DNA of 64,000 bases from Lingula anatina (taxonomy: Eukaryota > Animalia > Brachiopoda), in assembly GCA_051362555.1 (NCBI GenBank), contig CM120640.1, positions 63,094,788-63,158,787 of the forward strand. Direction: 5' to 3'. Made by a program: the position numbers and the translations under genes. Shown one piece after another: positions 35,701-59,077 of this stretch; the first letter of the stretch is position 1; each line of letters starts with the position of its first letter. The notes beneath the pieces are model-generated. The model was not told the origin of the DNA. It saw only the letters and a list, made by a program, of their open reading frames with translations, and did no database searches.

Positions 35701-38447
35701 AGTGTTAAGCGATGATCAGAACACTGATCTTGTTCTACCTGTATGTGGTCAAAATACTTAAACCCAGTTACATGCATCTTCCACATTTTGTCTTAAATCA
35801 ATTCAACAATGCATTGTCACCTCTTTTACACATACATGTACAACAGTGAAAATTAAGCATGAAAGTATAATATTCAGTCCAAAAATTTTACCTACATGGT
35901 TTACACTCTGATGCATGGCAGATTAATAATGGAAAAGATAAAGCAGTCTCACACATCCTTTCTTTAAAAAAAAAAGTAATAAGAGAATACATTATTTAAT
36001 CAAGCTTACATTCTTGTTGATTTGTACCCGTAGTTTCAAGCACCTGCCACATTCCTCTGGCAGAAAAAAAATCACCAGTCCTGAGCAAAGCGGTACAGCA
36101 CAATACTTCCCCATGTTCTTAGGACCTACTATTATATACACACAACCACACTGAAGTCTTAAACCAAATAAGATGCCCAAATATAAGAGAGTAAATTTTA
36201 AAGTCTTGGCTAACTGCCTGTCTGTGGTGCCTTATTACACCCACACTGGAGTCAATAATTGGAGAAGACACCGACCCTCAAAAGAATTATACATGCTTAG
36301 GCTTATACCTGGGGCATTTTGTCTCTATCTGTTACAAATATGCAGCATATTTTTACTTTGTTCCACCTTTCTGTCTACACAGTGCAGTGCATTCCACTTT
36401 CATCTGCACCTTGGGGATGTGATAATAAATTGGTCTGTTTTCCACAGGATTGGCCTTTTTTATGATAAACCCGTCTTTTGGCAGGTTTTTTTTACAAGAT
36501 ACTGAAAGCATTGTATCATAAATTAACAGTTCTTTCATATTAATAAAAATAAGAATAAATGGCCTTTTATGTATTTTTGCATACTTTTTTGCATTTGAAG
36601 GTAAAGGTTTTTCCCCTCGACTCACTGTTGGTGACCAAGCATATACCATCATTGTATGTACTAATTGGAGGCCTATAAAGAATGATTTTTATTCTAATTT
36701 GAAATGAGAGTGAGGGATTTTTGCGATACAGTTCAATGCCATACAATTGAAACAGTCAGTTGTGAGTAAACTAAAAGCACTACTATAGTTTCCATTGCAA
36801 GACAGACCTATTCCTTTATCTTGGCATAAAAGGATATCATTTTTACGTTCTCATTATAAAGGCAAATATCAACATAATATTGAAAATGAAGATGATTAGT
36901 CTATGTGTATAAGCTCAGCATGAAATATGTTATAAATCTCTCTTAAAACATGCAATTTACTTATTTACACTTGTTATTTATCAGTAAAACATATTGACCA
37001 GCATTCACCACCATTCAGAAAACAGATAAACAAGTCGTACCTGGAAGCATTTTCATAAATGGCAATAAGATCACAATCAGTTACAAGCAGATCTTTTTCC
37101 CTTTCAATTACAACATTGTCAGCAATTGTTAACCAAAAAGTGAAAAGCAAACAATACAAGACTTTCATAAGACACTTTTCACACAGCTGTATCAGCTCAA
37201 ATCTACTGATATGGATGCGCTTGCACTAGAGGTCTTGTCTGGGTTCTAGTGTCTCACTGTCTAAAATATTTTATGCTATAATACATTTGTTTAGAATTTG
37301 TCCAGCAGTCCTAGTCTACATTCAATGATAGTCATAGTCATAGTGCAGGCCGACCAGAGATTCTACTGTGTTATTGTATTCCAACCAGTAGAACCAGTGA
37401 TGACATCATTTTTGCTTTCAGATATCTGTTGCTGTAATCACACCTTCAAAACATTGAAATCACACATAAAAAGTGCAACATATATACTTATTCAATCCTA
37501 GTGAGTGTTCTCTTTACATGTATATATGTGTAAAGGACTTCACAATTTGATTTCCAGACATATAATGTTCTGTATCTCAAAAACTATTTCCCACCCCTGA
37601 CACCCGATTTCAAATTTGCATTTTACATCTACGCAAATGGAATGCATTACCTATGTCATATGGAGCTTATCAATCATGAATCTCAATTTGTTTTGAAAGA
37701 AATAATTTGCTCACATTCTCTTTATCTTGTTTATTTGATAAAGATGACAACTAGTGGCTCATTAAACTTAAACTAATGCAATGTTTTCTTTATCTTCATT
37801 GTTTCTCCTTAAGAAAAATTCAAAGTAAATCAACATAATTCTCTGCACCCTGCATAATCAAAGGAGAACCAGGGTAAGAAAAAAGAATGTATCATTATAT
37901 AATGCCCTGCGTATCTTTCCTTCCCAGGTTAATGCCTTTTCTCCTTCATTTGGCATAGTCAAAACTGAATAATAAAAACCTTTCTGTCAACAAATCACAC
38001 ATGTCTACCTATACTATATCCTAGCTGGTACTACAAATCTAGACAGAAAAACTCAGGAGAAAAACGCTAATTAATTCTTCCAGGCAAACACACATACTGT
38101 GGACCATATAATTTCAACATTTCCTGGTAAATTGCCAAACAAAACCTTTTAACTGCTTCATGTCAAGTGTTCAGTTTATTCCAAACCATACTACCTTCCT
38201 GAGAGCAGCAATTCTGTTATAAACAATTATCCCAATGCTGACAAAGTGTGAAATATCCACGCTATACATATACTTTGAAGTAAAGGTAGTCTTAGGCCCT
38301 AATTTTCACTTTGTGCAGTAAACTTCTCTGTTTTGCACCATGCTAACTGGTCCTAACTTGTAGCTATGTTATAGTTTTTTTAAACTACTCTCTACAGGTT
38401 TTTTTCTCAACTGTTGTGGGCAGTGGGGCCTCTGCTTGAACTTTTAT

Positions 38448-38618
38448 TTAAAACCAACACACTTTCGGGCTTGCAGAGTTTATTTAAGAAAATAAATAAA
38501 CGACTAACTACATACGATTGAAATATATATAGTATAACAATTCGTTTAAAGAAAAAGGTTGACACAATGGAAAATAACTGTATATAAAAACCTACTGATG
38601 ATGAAACGACTATACCCC
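38448..38618 (-). repeat. Split direct repeat B2 (171 bp), element 3' end
   Basis: Copy of 38907-39077; AATAAA in element sense at 38484-38479. Confidence 0.95.
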
Positions 38619-38677: not shown

Positions 38678-38906
38678 AAATAAAAACGCAATAACTATGA
38701 AGCACCGGAGGAAGAGGGAGAGCGCCTGCTCCCTACACGCTTCTTCCTTGCTCGCTGCCAACGCTCTAATTGCCGATTTTAAAAGAGTCACGTGGCTGCT
38801 TTTCGGCTAACGGCCTTAAATTTGATAGGCTCCCACGACGGGGACCGCGCGCGGCGCGCCCTCCAGTGGCGGTTTTAAATAGCTTTCCGTTAAACGAAAA
38901 GAGTAC
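38678..38906 (-). repeat. Split direct repeat A2 (229 bp)
   Basis: Copy of 42809-43037; directly abuts B1. Confidence 0.95.
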
Positions 38907-39077
38907 TTAAAACCAACACACTTTCGGGCTTGCAGAGTTTATTTAAGAAAATAAATAAACGACTAACTACATACGATTGAAATATATATAGTATAACAAT
39001 TCGTTTAAAGAAAAAGGTTGACACAATGGAAAATAACTGTATATAAAAACCTACTGATGATGAAACGACTATACCCC
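38907..39077 (-). repeat. Split direct repeat B1 (171 bp)
   Basis: Identical by eye to 38448-38618 (offset 459); contains AATAAA in element sense (38943-38938). Confidence 0.95.
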
Positions 39078-39144: not shown

Positions 39145-40112
39145 CTAAGTTTGTTTGATGGCCTTGTGCATAGTGTCATATTTCATATCAGGGGTGGGCT
39201 TAATATATTCAAAAACAGCGTCACTTGACCAGTCACCCATTGATTTAACCATCCCTAGGGGGGTACCCACGGACAGCAGCCAGGTAGCCCCCCCTCTCCG
39301 CAAACTGTGGGTATTATAGACGGTAGGTGAAAGGCCTATTGTTCCCAGGGATTTTGTCAGTCTATGGCGGAAGCTCGCAGACGTGAGGTAGACCGTAGTA
39401 TCGTCCTTTAGGGTAGCGAAGAGGGGCGCCGATTCTGGCGTCTCGAGCGACAGTTTGAAAAAAGCTGTCAGTGCTGTAGTAGGACATAGTGCGTTCCCTG
39501 GCATGAAGGGAAGGGTGATGATGTGAGTTCTTTGGCCGAACTGGTTGGTTTTTGACTTAGTCACCCGTATGGTGCACCCTCTCTTAGTGAAAGTCACGTC
39601 ACGCCGCAGGATAGAATGACCCGGATCTGATTGCGATTTCGCCGTGAAGTTGCTGACTCTGAGCATGCCGAAAAACGCAGTTAAGCAAGCTGCCCACGTC
39701 TGCAGCTGGTCTAGGTCGCTTAAAATAAGGGTAGAACGCAGTTGGAGCAGGTGGAACGGGAGTATTGGTGATTTCTGTCGGCTGGGGTCCTGTTTGTGCC
39801 GTTTTATCCCGCCGATGGTAGCCTTAACATCCCACGAGGAGAGAGGGTTTGGGAACCCGAATTCCAAATGAATAATCCTAACTATGTTCAGGTACTGGCG
39901 AAGCGTAGATACGCCGCATGTGCGAGCCCGATACGCTGCATATCTGCAGAGATTTGCGGACGAGATAGGAACGGGCACACACTTTATCTCGGCGCAGAAT
40001 TTGGCGTAGGCGCGAAGGTGGGATTTGTAAGTGCTCTTAGTGGACGGTGCGAATAGCTGGGATCTCCAAAAGACTACCTCCTCATCTAGTTGCTGGCGCA
40101 GCCGCACGTGAT
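39145..40112 (-). CDS. Tyrosine recombinase (YR) of the retrotransposon
   Basis: Catalytic set R (FFGMLRVSN), K (SKTNQ), HSLRRGGAT, W (GDWSS), Y (FEYI). Overlaps the RT/RH stop. No ATG until residue 148 of the track ORF; start placed at the putative splice acceptor. Confidence 0.94.
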
Positions 40113-41737
40113 CTGAGTGAAGAAGAGAGAGAAAATAAAGATAAGTCAGTCATGTGATTCCTAAGATTGTAAAAAGGAGGTTTGGTATTGTGGTACATAT
40201 AAAAAACGGACACTAAGTTAATGAAGCGCGCACAAGAGTTCAGGTCGTGTATTCTTGATACGGCGTCGGCCATCCCATTGTCTTTTCCTGCGATATGAGC
40301 CGCCTGAATTGAAAAACAATGCTTCAGGGATAAATACGATAAGTCCTTAAGGAGGTCGTTACACATGTGATTGGGTGACGCTCCTTTGTTTAAGATGTGC
40401 ATGGCGACCTCGCTATCTGTGTGGACAATGACCCGGCATGAAGACCACAGGTGTCCCCATCTGTAAGCTGCAAGGACAATGGCTGCAAGTTCCTTTACGT
40501 TGATATGGCTGGCGCCAAGGCGGGGGGCATCCTGCTCCCAGTTCGTGTAATACCAGTCTCCATTGTGGAAGGCTCCACCTGCAAAAACACTGGAGTCTGT
40601 GAATACATGACATTCTGGACGGAAATCCCAGATTAGTCTGGTGTTGTTTCCTGCAATAAGCCATTTATTCCACCAAAGGAAGTCCCGGCGAAGAGAATCG
40701 AGTTTGCACTTGTGTGCCGCCTTTTTAAGAGTTGAAATCGCGTTGAAAATGGGGCGCACATGAGTTTTGCCCCAAGGGATAACATTTGAAGCCCACACGA
40801 GTTTCCCTGCGAGAGATTCAAGCTGGCGCCGCGACGCACGCTTCCGGGCCATGTATTGTTTTAAGCATGTAATCAGAGCCGACACCTTCTGCTTTTCCAG
40901 GGATAGCGTACCCGCGACAGTGTCTATGACGGTGCCCAGGAACGTAAGCCTTGTCGTAGGGTCGCACACTTTCTTCCAATTCACACTAAAGCCGAGCCGC
41001 CTCAGGAGATTAATCAAGGCGTTGTAAGCGTCCCGACACTCATTAAAGGTCTCTCCTATCACTAGAAAATCGTCGAGATATACTACCACATTAAAACCTC
41101 TTCTCTCCATCATTCGTTTGACGCTTTGTGAAATCCGATGAAAAATTTCAGGAGATTTGGTAGCACCGAATGGCAGTCTTGTATCCACTAGAACACGTGG
41201 CTCCCTATCGTCACTGAATTTCCATTTTAGCCCTGTGAGCCGGAACTGGGACGGGTGCAAGGGAACGGAGCGATAGGCTGCCTCGAGGTCCACTTTCGCT
41301 AGGTAATGACCGGGTTTGATCAGATTGAGGGCCGTCTGTAAAGTCTCACACTTAAAAGTGTTCTTAGTAGCATAATCATTGACAGCCTTACCTTCAGGAC
41401 GACTGTAATCGTGAATTAGGCGTATCTTGTCGTCGGACTTAGGCACTGCTGATAACGCGCTGATAATTAAGGGGTCTGCCTTGGGATATATGTAGCGACC
41501 TTCTCTTATCTCTTCTAGAATCTGCCTTTCCACCATGATTTTTGCACCTCCGCAGGTGGCAGATTTACTGTTAATAGTTTCGACTCTTGGTATGCTATCT
41601 AAATCAATGTCATCCACAATGCGAAAGCCCTCAGAGATTCCCCTTAAAATAAAAACATTGTCAACGTCTCCGCTTAGTTCCTCTCCCCACGCTCGAAGGT
41701 TTTCGCGGAGCGGAGAATCCCTCGCGCTTTGTAATGG
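40082..41737 (-). CDS. pol: Reverse transcriptase / RNase H ORF, in frame with gag behind a single TGA
   Basis: RT motifs RLIHD, AKVDLEAAY, RLPFG, VYLDDFL, FLG; RNase H motifs FTDSS, INVKELAA, HTDS, ADAVSR. The frame is open from 41737, 40 codons upstream of the GTG start used by the ORF track. Confidence 0.95.
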   Translation of the reverse strand, partial: PLQSARDSPLRENLRAWGEELSGDVDNVFILRGISEGFRIVDDIDLDSIPRVETINSKSATCGGAKIMVERQILEEIREGRYIYPKADPLIISALSAVPKSDDKIRLIHDYSRPEGKAVNDYATKNTFKCETLQTALNLIKPGHYLAKVDLEAAYRSVPLHPSQFRLTGLKWKFSDDREPRVLVDTRLPFGATKSPEIFHRISQSVKRMMERRGFNVVVYLDDFLVIGETFNECRDAYNALINLLRRLGFSVNWKKVCDPTTRLTFLGTVIDTVAGTLSLEKQKVSALITCLKQYMARKRASRRQLESLAGKLVWASNVIPWGKTHVRPIFNAISTLKKAAHKCKLDSLRRDFLWWNKWLIAGNNTRLIWDFRPECHVFTDSSVFAGGAFHNGDWYYTNWEQDAPRLGASHINVKELAAIVLAAYRWGHLWSSCRVIVHTDSEVAMHILNKGASPNHMCNDLLKDLSYLSLKHCFSIQAAHIAGKDNGMADAVSRIHDLNSCARFINLVSVFYMYHNTKPPFYNLRNHMTDLSLFSLSSSLRSRAAAPATR

Positions 41738-42802
41738 TCAGTGGGTTGTGTTTCTGCTTTCTTGCTGACTATGTGTGAATTCCCCGTGTGACGAGCTTTG
41801 GCATGTCAAACAAATGTGCGCAAAGCGGCAGTTTTGGAGAGAGCACCCTTGTCGACCATTGTACTTGAGACATATGGGGCGTCCTGACGATGGGTCTGTC
41901 CTGTTCGGCTTTCGTCTGTGTCCCAGGGAAGGAGGCGATGAGCGATCCTGGACTGGCTTAAGTAAGAGTTGCATAAGGAAAGGGCTGTCGCTTCCCCAGG
42001 GAAAACCCATGGAGTTTTGTGCCCTCCTGTACTCCGCATCGTACCGCAATACCGACGACCACGTAAACGATTGACCCATACACGCTACCTTCGTGATGTA
42101 GCCGACATATTGCATGGCTGTCTTCATGTCCGCGCCGTCTTGCTCCACCATTTCCTTCAGAATCTTCATTGATGCCTCGGTGAATTGCAGGGGGGTGATT
42201 TTCTCCAGTGGGATTTTCCGTTCCGTGAGAGATAGTTCTATGTTGCCTACTCGTAGTGGTACGTCGCTCTCTATCTTGCCTTTTTCGTAGGCCTGTGAAA
42301 ACATCACGTAGTCGCGGATCTCACGGAGCTTTGCAGTTTGCTTTTGTGGGATTGAGATCGAAAAGGGGTCAAAAATTTTACCTAGTGGCTCACCTGTTGT
42401 AGGTGTTTTGCTGTCCTGTTTCTCAACTCCTAGTAGCTGGCACAGCTTGGCATAATCTAGTTCGGAGTCAATAGGGTCTGGCTCCGTTTGTTTCCTCTCC
42501 CTCAGAACTTCCCTAGATGTAGATGGCTGATTTCCCTCACTTTCTGTGGCTCCTGTTGAATCACCCTCCCCCGCACCCGGACCCTGGTTGATCCGTGGCT
42601 GCGGAGGCTGCAGTGACTCCACTGCATCCTGCAGGAGTAGCAGCTGGGCCAAGGAAAGGGATCGTCCGAAATGTTTCTGAATAAGTGATTCAGAGAGCTT
42701 TTTGCAGCTCTTCAGAGATACAAAACCCGCGTCCTTTAAGATGTCTACCGTCTCTGGGGATAGCTCATTTTCCTGGACCCAAAGCTCGAAATTCTCTGCC
42801 AT
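41738..42802 (-). CDS. gag: Gag-like ORF1 of YR retrotransposon (354 aa)
   Basis: ATG 6 nt downstream of A1. W.SV.RYD.EYR motif and C-terminal Cys/His finger (CLKYN..GC..NCRFAHICLTC...H) typical of DIRS-order Gag. The N-terminal ~65 aa resemble a SAM fold. Confidence 0.88.
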   Translation of the reverse strand: MAENFELWVQENELSPETVDILKDAGFVSLKSCKKLSESLIQKHFGRSLSLAQLLLLQDAVESLQPPQPRINQGPGAGEGDSTGATESEGNQPSTSREVLRERKQTEPDPIDSELDYAKLCQLLGVEKQDSKTPTTGEPLGKIFDPFSISIPQKQTAKLREIRDYVMFSQAYEKGKIESDVPLRVGNIELSLTERKIPLEKITPLQFTEASMKILKEMVEQDGADMKTAMQYVGYITKVACMGQSFTWSSVLRYDAEYRRAQNSMGFPWGSDSPFLMQLLLKPVQDRSSPPSLGHRRKPNRTDPSSGRPICLKYNGRQGCSLQNCRFAHICLTCQSSSHGEFTHSQQESRNTTH

Positions 42803-42808
42803 AGTTTA

Positions 42809-43037
42809 AAATAAAAACGCAATAACTATGAAGCACCGGAGGAAGAGGGAGAGCGCCTGCTCCCTACACGCTTCTTCCTTGCTCGCTGCCAACGCTCTAA
42901 TTGCCGATTTTAAAAGAGTCACGTGGCTGCTTTTCGGCTAACGGCCTTAAATTTGATAGGCTCCCACGACGGGGACCGCGCGCGGCGCGCCCTCCAGTGG
43001 CGGTTTTAAATAGCTTTCCGTTAAACGAAAAGAGTAC
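42809..43037 (-). repeat. Split direct repeat A1 (229 bp)
   Basis: Identical by eye to 38678-38906 (offset 4131). Confidence 0.95.
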
Positions 43038-44694
43038 GTAATAGCTAGGCAATTAAGTATTCAATCCCTCAAAATGGTGTGAAACAGAAAAGTTTGCCAC
43101 ATGATGTGAAAAAGGTCTTAAATTTAGATTGGCCTTTTTATCTTATAGGTAAGAACAGAATAATAATGAAAATTGTAATATTGAAAACCAAAGCTTTAAT
43201 TAAGTCCCCAAACTTAAACCATTTGCTAATTTCTCATTTGTTAGTCAGTTTCTATATATCACTTTTAACTGAAAAAAAAAAAAAAAAAAAAGAAAAGTTC
43301 TGATGTACATGTTTAGGAAAGCTGTGCACTTGTGTTGCAAGTCACGACTTTTGACAACATTGCCCTTTTTCAACGAAATTATTCAGTGCTCCTTCAAAAT
43401 AATTAAATCAACTTGTCTAAATAGAAAGCACATGGGTCAAGAGATTACCTGACCACCTATGTATTAGTTTCCCCCCCCCCCACCCCCCCACCCAAATACC
43501 TCCGTAAAAATCTCCACACCCACCTATATAGGGTCCATTTCTAGACTAGATGCTGGGAAACCATGCAAAACACGTCTTTGATCTTCGTCTATGCCCACTG
43601 GCCCATTGCAGGCCAGTCAGAGAGTCTCGCCAATTGTGAATCAAATGACGTCACTTGTGTAGCAGTTCTACTTTTCCTCTAGGATGGTTGTCTATTTTGA
43701 TTTCATAATCTAGTGACCTCTGTCCAACTAGCTGAGGCAAAATGTGCGCTTGGCATGCAGTCGATTGCAATCCAGTTATTTAGGTACCATGCCCTGCATT
43801 TACTGCCTCTAGGTCATTCACTGGCTCAATCATTAGCAATACTGATTCAACAAATCTGCGTGTAACTATGCTAAATTTTTCATCTTAAATCTTTAAGGCA
43901 TAGATGTTTAGGATTCTAAACAAACCCTTCAAACTTTTTTAATCAGATATACAGCACAATTTTTCTGTGAACTTTGTTTTTTTTCTTAATTTTTAAAAAC
44001 TTTCAATCCCATATTTTCTAGTACAAGCAAACATGACTTGGACATCCAAAGTGTGATCATGCACAACATGCAAGCATGCAGTAGCTTACCTGCAAACCCA
44101 TATTGCATCCCTAACTTAAACAAACTTCCTTTTTTTCAGTAGCTTTCTACACTTTCTCTCAACTCCATACCAGAGCTTGCATTTGTGAAACATGTGCCCT
44201 TTCACCTACCTCACTGCGGCTTCGCAGCCTCTGGAACCTGTGAACCTTGTGCTTAAAAGACTGGTAATGTTCTTTAAGTGTAGAGTTGCGATCTCCTTGT
44301 CCCCCACTGGCTGTTGAGTTCTGCAGCATTTCACCCTAATGCCTGTGACCTATATCAATCAATTTCAGCACACTGTTGTACATTCCCATTAATTAACTCT
44401 CCTGCTAACTATCTCCTTCTCATTAATTTTTTCCTTTCTACCCTTCTTTTTTTACAAGCATCATGCTCCATCAATTTTCTCCTTGTTAACTTCTGGTGAT
44501 GTTAAAAAGATAATTCAACTTCTACAAAAATACCCTCTTGACATTTTTTTTTTTTTGCCTTTTCTGCTGTTGAACAGCTTTCAGTATTCCTTGCTGCCTT
44601 AATTTGATGAAAAAAACTTAAATAAAACAGGAGCAGTGAACACCAAAAATTCAGGTCACTCTGAAAACAAAATGCAGAGAAAACAGTGACTTAC

Positions 44695-58773: not shown

Positions 58774-59077
58774 AGGCAGCATTCACATCGAGTTGAGCCA
58801 TGGCTCTACAAAGCCACGACCTAAATATGGTGGACGTACATGAAAGGAAAACCGCCTAATCTTTTAATAGTCTCTCCGTCTCTCACACGCCTCCCTACGC
58901 GTCGTCCCTGCGGGGGTACAGTCATTAAATCTCGGCTCCATTCGCCCGGAAGCTGGGGAGGCGTGTGAGAGGCAGAGAGACTATTAAAAGATTAGGCGGT
59001 TTTCTTTTCATGTATGTCCGCCATATTTAGGTCGTGGCTTTGTAGAGCCATGGCTCAACTCGATGTGAATGCGGCCT
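58774..59077. mobile_element. Foldback/long-TIR non-autonomous element (122-bp arms, 60-bp spacer)
   Basis: 58774-58895 is the reverse complement of 58956-59077 with 6 mismatches counted by eye; no exact TSD recognised. Confidence 0.85.

Follow-up and report, generated by a model that had tools for sequence, protein, structure and literature searches.

A predicted spliced Gag-recombinase message in a Ngaro-type retrotransposon of the brachiopod Lingula anatina

Introduction

How a tyrosine recombinase (YR) is produced when its reading frame offers no usable start codon is the question raised by a retrotransposon on the minus strand of contig CM120640.1 of Lingula anatina. The stretch analysed, referred to here as the window, comprises 64,000 nucleotides. 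In Ngaro elements the YR frame overlaps that of RT and RNase H (RH) at -1 and is probably expressed by frameshifting, according to Poulter and Butler (2015) as quoted in PMC13003380; this statement in print on the translation of a start-less YR is a guess. A sequence-only reading of the locus had proposed a different route, namely that the recombinase is made from a spliced message in which the N-terminal part of Gag is fused to YR. The proposal was evaluated here using related elements, structural models, protein matches and RNA reads.

Results

Architecture and classification of the element

A complete and intact YR retrotransposon was found at 43041-38445 on the minus strand (Table 1), with RT and RNase H followed by YR on one strand and the split repeats arranged in the order A1, ORFs, B1, A2, B2, all of them direct. 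As the two copies of A are 99.6% and those of B 99.4% identical, the insertion is young. No second copy of the element was found within the 64-kb window and no relative was found in viral contigs. Nine homologues of gag were obtained at 36-47% identity. The Pfam match of the RNase H in pol was weak, while YR matched Phage_integrase (E 2.1e-5) and, in its N-terminal domain, Phage_int_SAM_4 (E 0.0014). The catalytic residues R151, K187, H268, R271, W294 and Y302 of YR (with H-x-x-R) were invariant in an alignment of 56 sequences.

Pfam matches of the 551-aa pol frame, accepted up to an E value of 0.1, included no methyltransferase, for which little room is left after RH, and with this domain not detected a PAT-like YR retrotransposon was ruled out. 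A DIRS-like element was ruled out as well, the repeats of note being all direct and inverted pairs 18-24 nt long at 75-83%. By the definitions given in passages of PMC4157794 and PMC3783388, in which Ngaro-like elements have gag, RT/RH and YR in this order, split direct repeats and no methyltransferase, the element is Ngaro-type, a placement made by architecture.

The gag and pol frames share one frame that is interrupted by the gag stop. Among the 26 full gags described below, the gag/pol junction was a same-frame stop in 14, a -1 overlap in 8, an open fusion in 2 and of another kind in 2. The same-frame stops were TGA-C in 10 cases, TAG-G in 3 and TGA-A in 1, and AAAAAAC was present in 6 of the 8 overlaps. 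At this locus gag and pol are read in one frame on both sides of TGA-C, an arrangement shared by 10 of the 14 same-frame relatives that suggests readthrough, and readthrough and frameshifting appear to alternate within the clade at gag/pol.

Elsewhere in the window, several exon-like frames at about 29030-25540 (minus strand) gave no Pfam or PDB match; they resemble a PDE3-type cyclic-nucleotide phosphodiesterase. The retrotransposon lies upstream of these PDE3-like frames on the same strand and may reside in an intron, in which case host transcripts could be captured by the strong acceptor of the element. The window also contains a 300-codon open frame of low complexity and no clear family (53490-52591, minus strand) and a 300-nt imperfect palindrome (58774-59077) that is 85% self-complementary, like a small inverted-repeat transposon.

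Table 1. Coordinates of observed and predicted features of the element within the window.
Feature	Coordinates	Strand	Remarks
Split direct repeat A1 (5' end)	42809..43041	-	233 nt, 99.6% identical to A2
gag ORF, 354 aa	41738..42802	-	SAM-like domain, linker, helical core, Cys/His zinc-finger-like end
SAM-like five-helix domain, Gag 1-65	42608..42802	-	pLDDT 88; within predicted fusion
Predicted exon 1, coding part	42394..42802	-	136 Gag codons + one base; splice inferred
Predicted 5' splice site 1, CAG/GTGAGC	42388..42396	-	intron starts 42393, phase 1, best donor in gag
Alternative 5' splice site 2, TAG/GTAAAA	42376..42384	-	intron starts 42381, phase 1
Predicted retained/alternative intron, 2281 nt	40113..42393	-	spans Gag C-half and RT/RH
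gag stop TGA, then CCA TTA, pol in same frame	41732..41740	-	readthrough-like; readthrough inferred
pol frame, 551 aa, RT + RNase H	40082..41737	-	Pfam RVT_1 E 2.6e-17, RT_RNaseH E 0.0047
Predicted branch point CTGAC, pyrimidine tract, 3' splice site CAG	40113..40149	-	within RNase H tail
YR open frame	40149-39145	-	closed upstream by TGA at 40152-40150
Predicted exon 2, tyrosine recombinase	39145..40112	-	321 residues past junction codon
Split direct repeat B1	38904..39077	-	174 nt, 99.4% identical to B2
Split direct repeat A2	38678..38910	-	99.6% identity with A1
Split direct repeat B2 (3' end)	38445..38618	-	99.4% identity with B1

Start codon and splice signals at the locus

The YR frame is closed upstream by a TGA at 40152-40150, as the sequence-only reading had it. 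That reading also placed the first Met of the frame two residues before the catalytic Arg, which holds; its residue number of 148 does not, as numbering from stop to stop makes this Met residue 162, and 148 applies just when counting from the GTG at 40107. Owing to the proximity of the first Met to the invariant Arg, a protein initiated at this Met would be devoid of the entire N-terminal binding domain (residues 29-92), leaving YR with no usable ATG.

The proposed acceptor at the YR start was verified in the sequence: 19 of 20 bases in the pyrimidine tract are pyrimidines, and the tract is followed by CAG ending at 40113, all within the RNase H tail. The CTGAC proposed as its branch point is present at 40149-40145, and branch-point consensus is weakly kept among relatives (YTRAY in 17 of 59 elements). 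Acceptors with 19 of 20 pyrimidines were found four times in 128 kb (both strands of the window) and once in the coding region of the element, and the acceptor at the YR start is more than chance. Both proposed donors, CAG/GTGAGC (42393) and TAG/GTAAAA (42381), were found in gag after 409 and 421 coding nucleotides and both are phase 1, as is the acceptor in the YR frame. The predicted intron accordingly has the features of the U2 type, with GT-AG ends, pyrimidine tract and matching phase, and its length of 2281 nt and the predicted product of 458 aa were reproduced by arithmetic. The top donor-like site of the whole element lies in RT at 41391 with a score of 7.4, above that of the gag donor (6.4).

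Conservation of the acceptor in relatives

Relatives were collected from metagenome contigs using the alignment of 56 YR proteins, and the best 80 of 448 confirmed loci were taken. Together with the window these formed 66 clusters at 70% YR identity, of which two with a truncated YR start were dropped, resulting in 64 elements (window included) with a median pairwise YR identity of 37%. The best pyrimidine-rich AG in a 120-nt interval around the YR start was in phase 1 in 59 of the 64 elements, mostly 2-29 nt 5' of the first YR helix. In control intervals containing an AG, phase 1 was observed in 133 of 476 within RT/RH and in 129 of 315 inside YR, and a binomial test of the acceptor phase versus the YR control gave p ~8e-18, a value to be read with some dependence among the relatives in mind. 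Of the five exceptions, four carry a phase-1 AG of slightly lower score (12-14) in the vicinity; in the fifth (L016) there was no phase-1 AG nearby and an ATG was present. An in-frame ATG near the YR start was absent in 39 of the 64 elements and present somewhere in 25.

Two features that lie outside the scoring were inspected in the 59 phase-1 acceptors. Position -4 was mixed between T-rich neighbours and position +1 was A or G in 53 of the 59. The consensus of 3' splice sites has a mixed position -4 with T-rich neighbours and a purine at +1, and the composition at both positions fits such a site. The AG cannot be accounted for by an amino acid constraint on RNase H, because the RH frame shifts relative to YR while the acceptor stays in phase 1. 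The sequence-only reading had put forward a comparison in which splice signals and phase are conserved while neighbouring sequence diverges, and this was the outcome: DNA around the acceptor matched the window at just 14-22 of 52 bases in five relatives, and acceptor, donor and phase were kept.

In 24 of the 59 elements, a CAYATG motif precedes the acceptor by 10-45 nt (about 40160-40150 on the minus strand in the window). It may represent His-Met of the RNase H tail, belong to the branch region or be an element that acts in splicing. In addition, L005, L016 and L031 showed a Gag N-terminal match 1.3-1.6 kb 3' of the YR start, an arrangement that tandem elements or assembled circles would produce.

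A donor cluster in the Gag linker

A full gag was available for 28 elements including the window, or 26 once near-copies were removed, and donors in these were scored with an approximate matrix. The phase of the best gag donor was rejected as evidence taken by itself, since it was phase 1 in 23 of 26 gags while shuffles gave a mean of 16.6 and a maximum of 25. The position of the donors was informative. In 20 of the 26 full gags, a phase-1 donor scoring 4 or more was found at a distance of 70-140 residues on the N-terminal side of the Gag core anchor, compared with means of 3.3 and 5.5 and maxima of 11 and 12 in 500 shuffles each of codon order and by synonymous resampling, respectively. No phase-0 or phase-2 donors with a score of at least 4 were found in the bins from -140 to -61. 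As the 70-140 interval had been picked after inspection, the count was retested with a freely sliding interval, resulting in 19 of 26 against shuffle maxima of 12 and 13 (1000 each, one of the shuffles keeping the protein fixed). In the six other gags, donors in this zone were weak (score 1.0-4). The introns implied in relatives span 2173-2731 nt.

In the structural model of Gag, the donors of the window would fall within a low-confidence linker that connects a helix at 117-123 to the core at ~196-280. The closest Gag relatives carry Gly-Lys just before an FDPF motif, at a position between the two donors of the window. This dipeptide may be the protein echo of a G/GTAAR donor, and either of the two donors could be used in the window. 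Of 46 Gag proteins, 18 (8 of the 9 closest among them) have Gly-Lys or Gly-Glu no more than 16 residues upstream of the invariant Pro146, and such a pair was found in 82 of 745 intervals elsewhere. In L056 and L059, gag continues into pol as a single open frame with no stop between them, and the phase-1 donor and acceptor are still kept.

The N-terminal domain of Gag

The Gag portion of the predicted fusion includes a SAM-like domain (Table 1). The best structural match to the model of Gag 1-65 was the SAM domain of p73 (Z 8.3, rmsd 1.7 A over 61 residues), pointing to a SAM-like fold. By sequence, the Pfam match to SAM_2 (E 0.082, 13.5 bits) was below the cut-off of 20.5, and the best PDB sequence-profile matches were C-terminal domains of RNA polymerase alpha, which have a related fold. 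A Foldseek search of PDB and of viral models with the whole Gag model gave no match at E 0.001. A profile of the SAM-like domain matched 17 of the 26 gags, 15 of which had been used in building it, and the domain was absent in 9; it can therefore not be the general reason for a fusion. SAM domains commonly self-associate, which suggests that, where the domain is present, the fusion could dock YR onto Gag through it.

RNA reads, fusion proteins and intron-less copies

Four of nine raw-read runs from the same species were searched, 6-26% of each run being read and a joint requiring three reads in order to be listed. The numbers of reads placed on the element were 58, 14, 8 and 7, or 87 in total. 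No joint was found among these 87 reads, a search without power, given that even the best run reached a depth of only ~0.05 in the acceptor bin and that the threshold was three reads. In runs X1 and X4, 58 and 14 reads were at least 95% identical across gag, RT and YR, and mostly oriented as sense RNA would be in a common stranded library; runs X7 and X8 gave partial matches only. Reads were observed inside RT, and unspliced RNA is thus made from the family of the element. Reads of X1 differ from the copy in the window by a substitution at 40527 (6 of 9 reads) and a one-base insertion at 39457 (4 of 6), indicating that other copies or alleles are transcribed. Reads of X8 with loose ends at 40095-40126 were put down to fortuitous similarity with the pyrimidine tract and rejected, being unlike the element on both sides.

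A clean Gag(N)-YR protein was not found among 150 matches to the Gag N-terminal profile. The one match of the 150 with both parts (P0279) consists of RT fragments and only the C-terminal end of YR, and was set aside as resembling a faulty gene model. No integrase family was present in the Pfam column of 16 longer Gag N-terminal matches, and no intron-less DNA copy was found among the best 80 of the 448 loci. The collections behind these three negative results consist mostly of genomic contigs, on which genes are called unspliced.

Alternative routes to the recombinase

The route given as probable in print (Poulter and Butler 2015, quoted in PMC13003380) is a programmed frameshift from the end of RT/RH into YR, which would yield a Gag-RT/RH-YR polyprotein. 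The RH and YR frames do overlap, by 65 nt here and in 49 of the 61 elements with an RT match (3 of the 64 had none). The overlap is absent in the other 12, however, and YR is placed at -1, +1 or 0 relative to RH in 28, 23 (window included) and 10 of the 61 elements, respectively. Among the 28 elements at -1, a strict slippery heptamer was found in 1 and a relaxed one in 8, and no strict site was found in the window. An equal scan of the -1 gag/pol junctions gave strict sites in 6 of 8 and relaxed sites in 8 of 8, so the scan does detect frameshift signals in these elements. On a quickly built YR tree, 20 changes in the label of the RH/YR frame were counted while the phase of the acceptor is kept, and a drifting frame with a fixed acceptor phase is the prediction of splicing and not of frameshifting, which leaves both the fixed phase-1 AG and the donor cluster unexplained. 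We consider a frameshift into YR highly improbable. Much the same holds for a start of YR at a near-cognate codon, here the GTG at 40107, or through reinitiation past the RH stop, with the splice signals being incidental. The GTG lies two codons 3' of the acceptor here and a near-cognate codon or ATG is found at -20 to +6 codons in 56 of the 64 elements, but four candidate codons at 26 positions are often expected by chance, no single codon is kept (ATG in 19 and GTG in 21 of 64), and the phase-locked acceptor and the donor would stay unexplained; such a start is very unlikely. The frameshift and the GTG start, both raised as alternatives by the sequence-only reading, thus fare badly in the relatives.

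A further possibility is that the acceptor is real and is joined to something other than the Gag linker, such as the donor at 41391, a short leader with an ATG, or host exons. No donor-like site of the element scores higher than that at 41391, whose phase in the Gag-pol frame is also 1, and the donors in the Gag zone are weak in 6 of 26 relatives. Against this, 41391 sits on a conserved Gly codon and is kept in 1 of 30 elements, for which it was rejected as a donor; the donor cluster in the Gag linker is well above shuffles, and inspection of the sequence of A1 revealed no ATG 5' of gag. An exon other than Gag is consequently regarded as unlikely. Splicing from the Gag linker to the YR start, as the sequence-only reading proposed, is supported by the conservation of acceptor, donor and phase, and in our assessment the recombinase is very probably made from a spliced Gag(N)-YR mRNA.

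Discussion

In the mechanism proposed here, a single promoter presumed to lie in A1 would give rise to a full-length RNA. Left unspliced, this RNA would serve both as the genome and as the message for Gag, and would produce Gag-RT/RH by likely stop-codon readthrough in the element described and by -1 frameshifting in some relatives. In a fraction of the RNA the predicted 2.3-kb intron would be removed by joining the phase-1 donor of the Gag linker to the phase-1 acceptor at the YR start, and the spliced product of ~458 residues would contain the N-terminal part of Gag and the whole recombinase. More speculatively, the SAM-like domain may serve as a tether between the recombinase and Gag assemblies, allowing the enzyme to travel with the new cDNA. 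A broader version, in which a wide Ngaro clade makes the enzyme solely as a spliced Gag(N)-YR protein and has RT/RH lying within a retained intron, the Gag piece, often a SAM-like polymerising domain, docking YR into the Gag particle in place of the Gag-Pol polyprotein by which LTR elements package integrase, is offered tentatively, its chances being a little short of even.

If true, a conserved splice would correct the expression model for a large group of elements and redefine the YR protein, which would carry about 100-250 additional N-terminal residues. It would also explain the freedom of the RH/YR frame to drift, name the protein to express for integration assays and make the element subject to the host's control over splicing and intron retention. 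The model further suggests a way in which an integrase that is not part of a polyprotein could reach the cDNA.

The type of element is known, and its route of YR expression was not found described in the literature searched, where no report of a spliced Gag-YR message was found; the founding papers may mention one. The order of gag, RT/RH and YR, the A1...B1-A2-B2 repeats and the lack of a methyltransferase are common to Ngaro-like elements and the element described here. Goodwin and Poulter are said to have described spliceosomal introns in fungal and algal YR retrotransposons in 2004; these are reportedly short and non-coding, whereas the intron predicted here is 2.3 kb, coding, and contains the RT/RH gene. 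The env messages of retroviruses and gypsy-type elements and the pol message of foamy viruses are spliced, and the likeness to these is that a 3' gene without ribosome access of its own is reached from a 5' donor. To our knowledge, however, the spliced products in these systems are env or Pol with mostly little or no Gag sequence, and a Gag piece of 100-250 residues fused to the integrating enzyme, as predicted here, is not known among them.

Among Ngaro elements, that of Xenopus has an extra ORF for an SGNH hydrolase, as described in PMC9210276, and the element here is without one. The Ngaro model in print, as quoted in PMC13003380, is a -1 frameshift into YR, whereas here YR lies at +1 and the evidence points to splicing. 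The plant Ty1/Copia element EVD, as described in PMC5580714, makes a spliced subgenomic GAG RNA through a conserved alternative splice while unspliced RNA stays as the genome, and the splice predicted here is alike in both respects. The two differ in outcome: in EVD a short, GAG-only message raises the amount of structural protein, whereas the predicted splice in the Lingula element would bypass RT/RH and attach the N-terminal part of Gag to the integrating enzyme.
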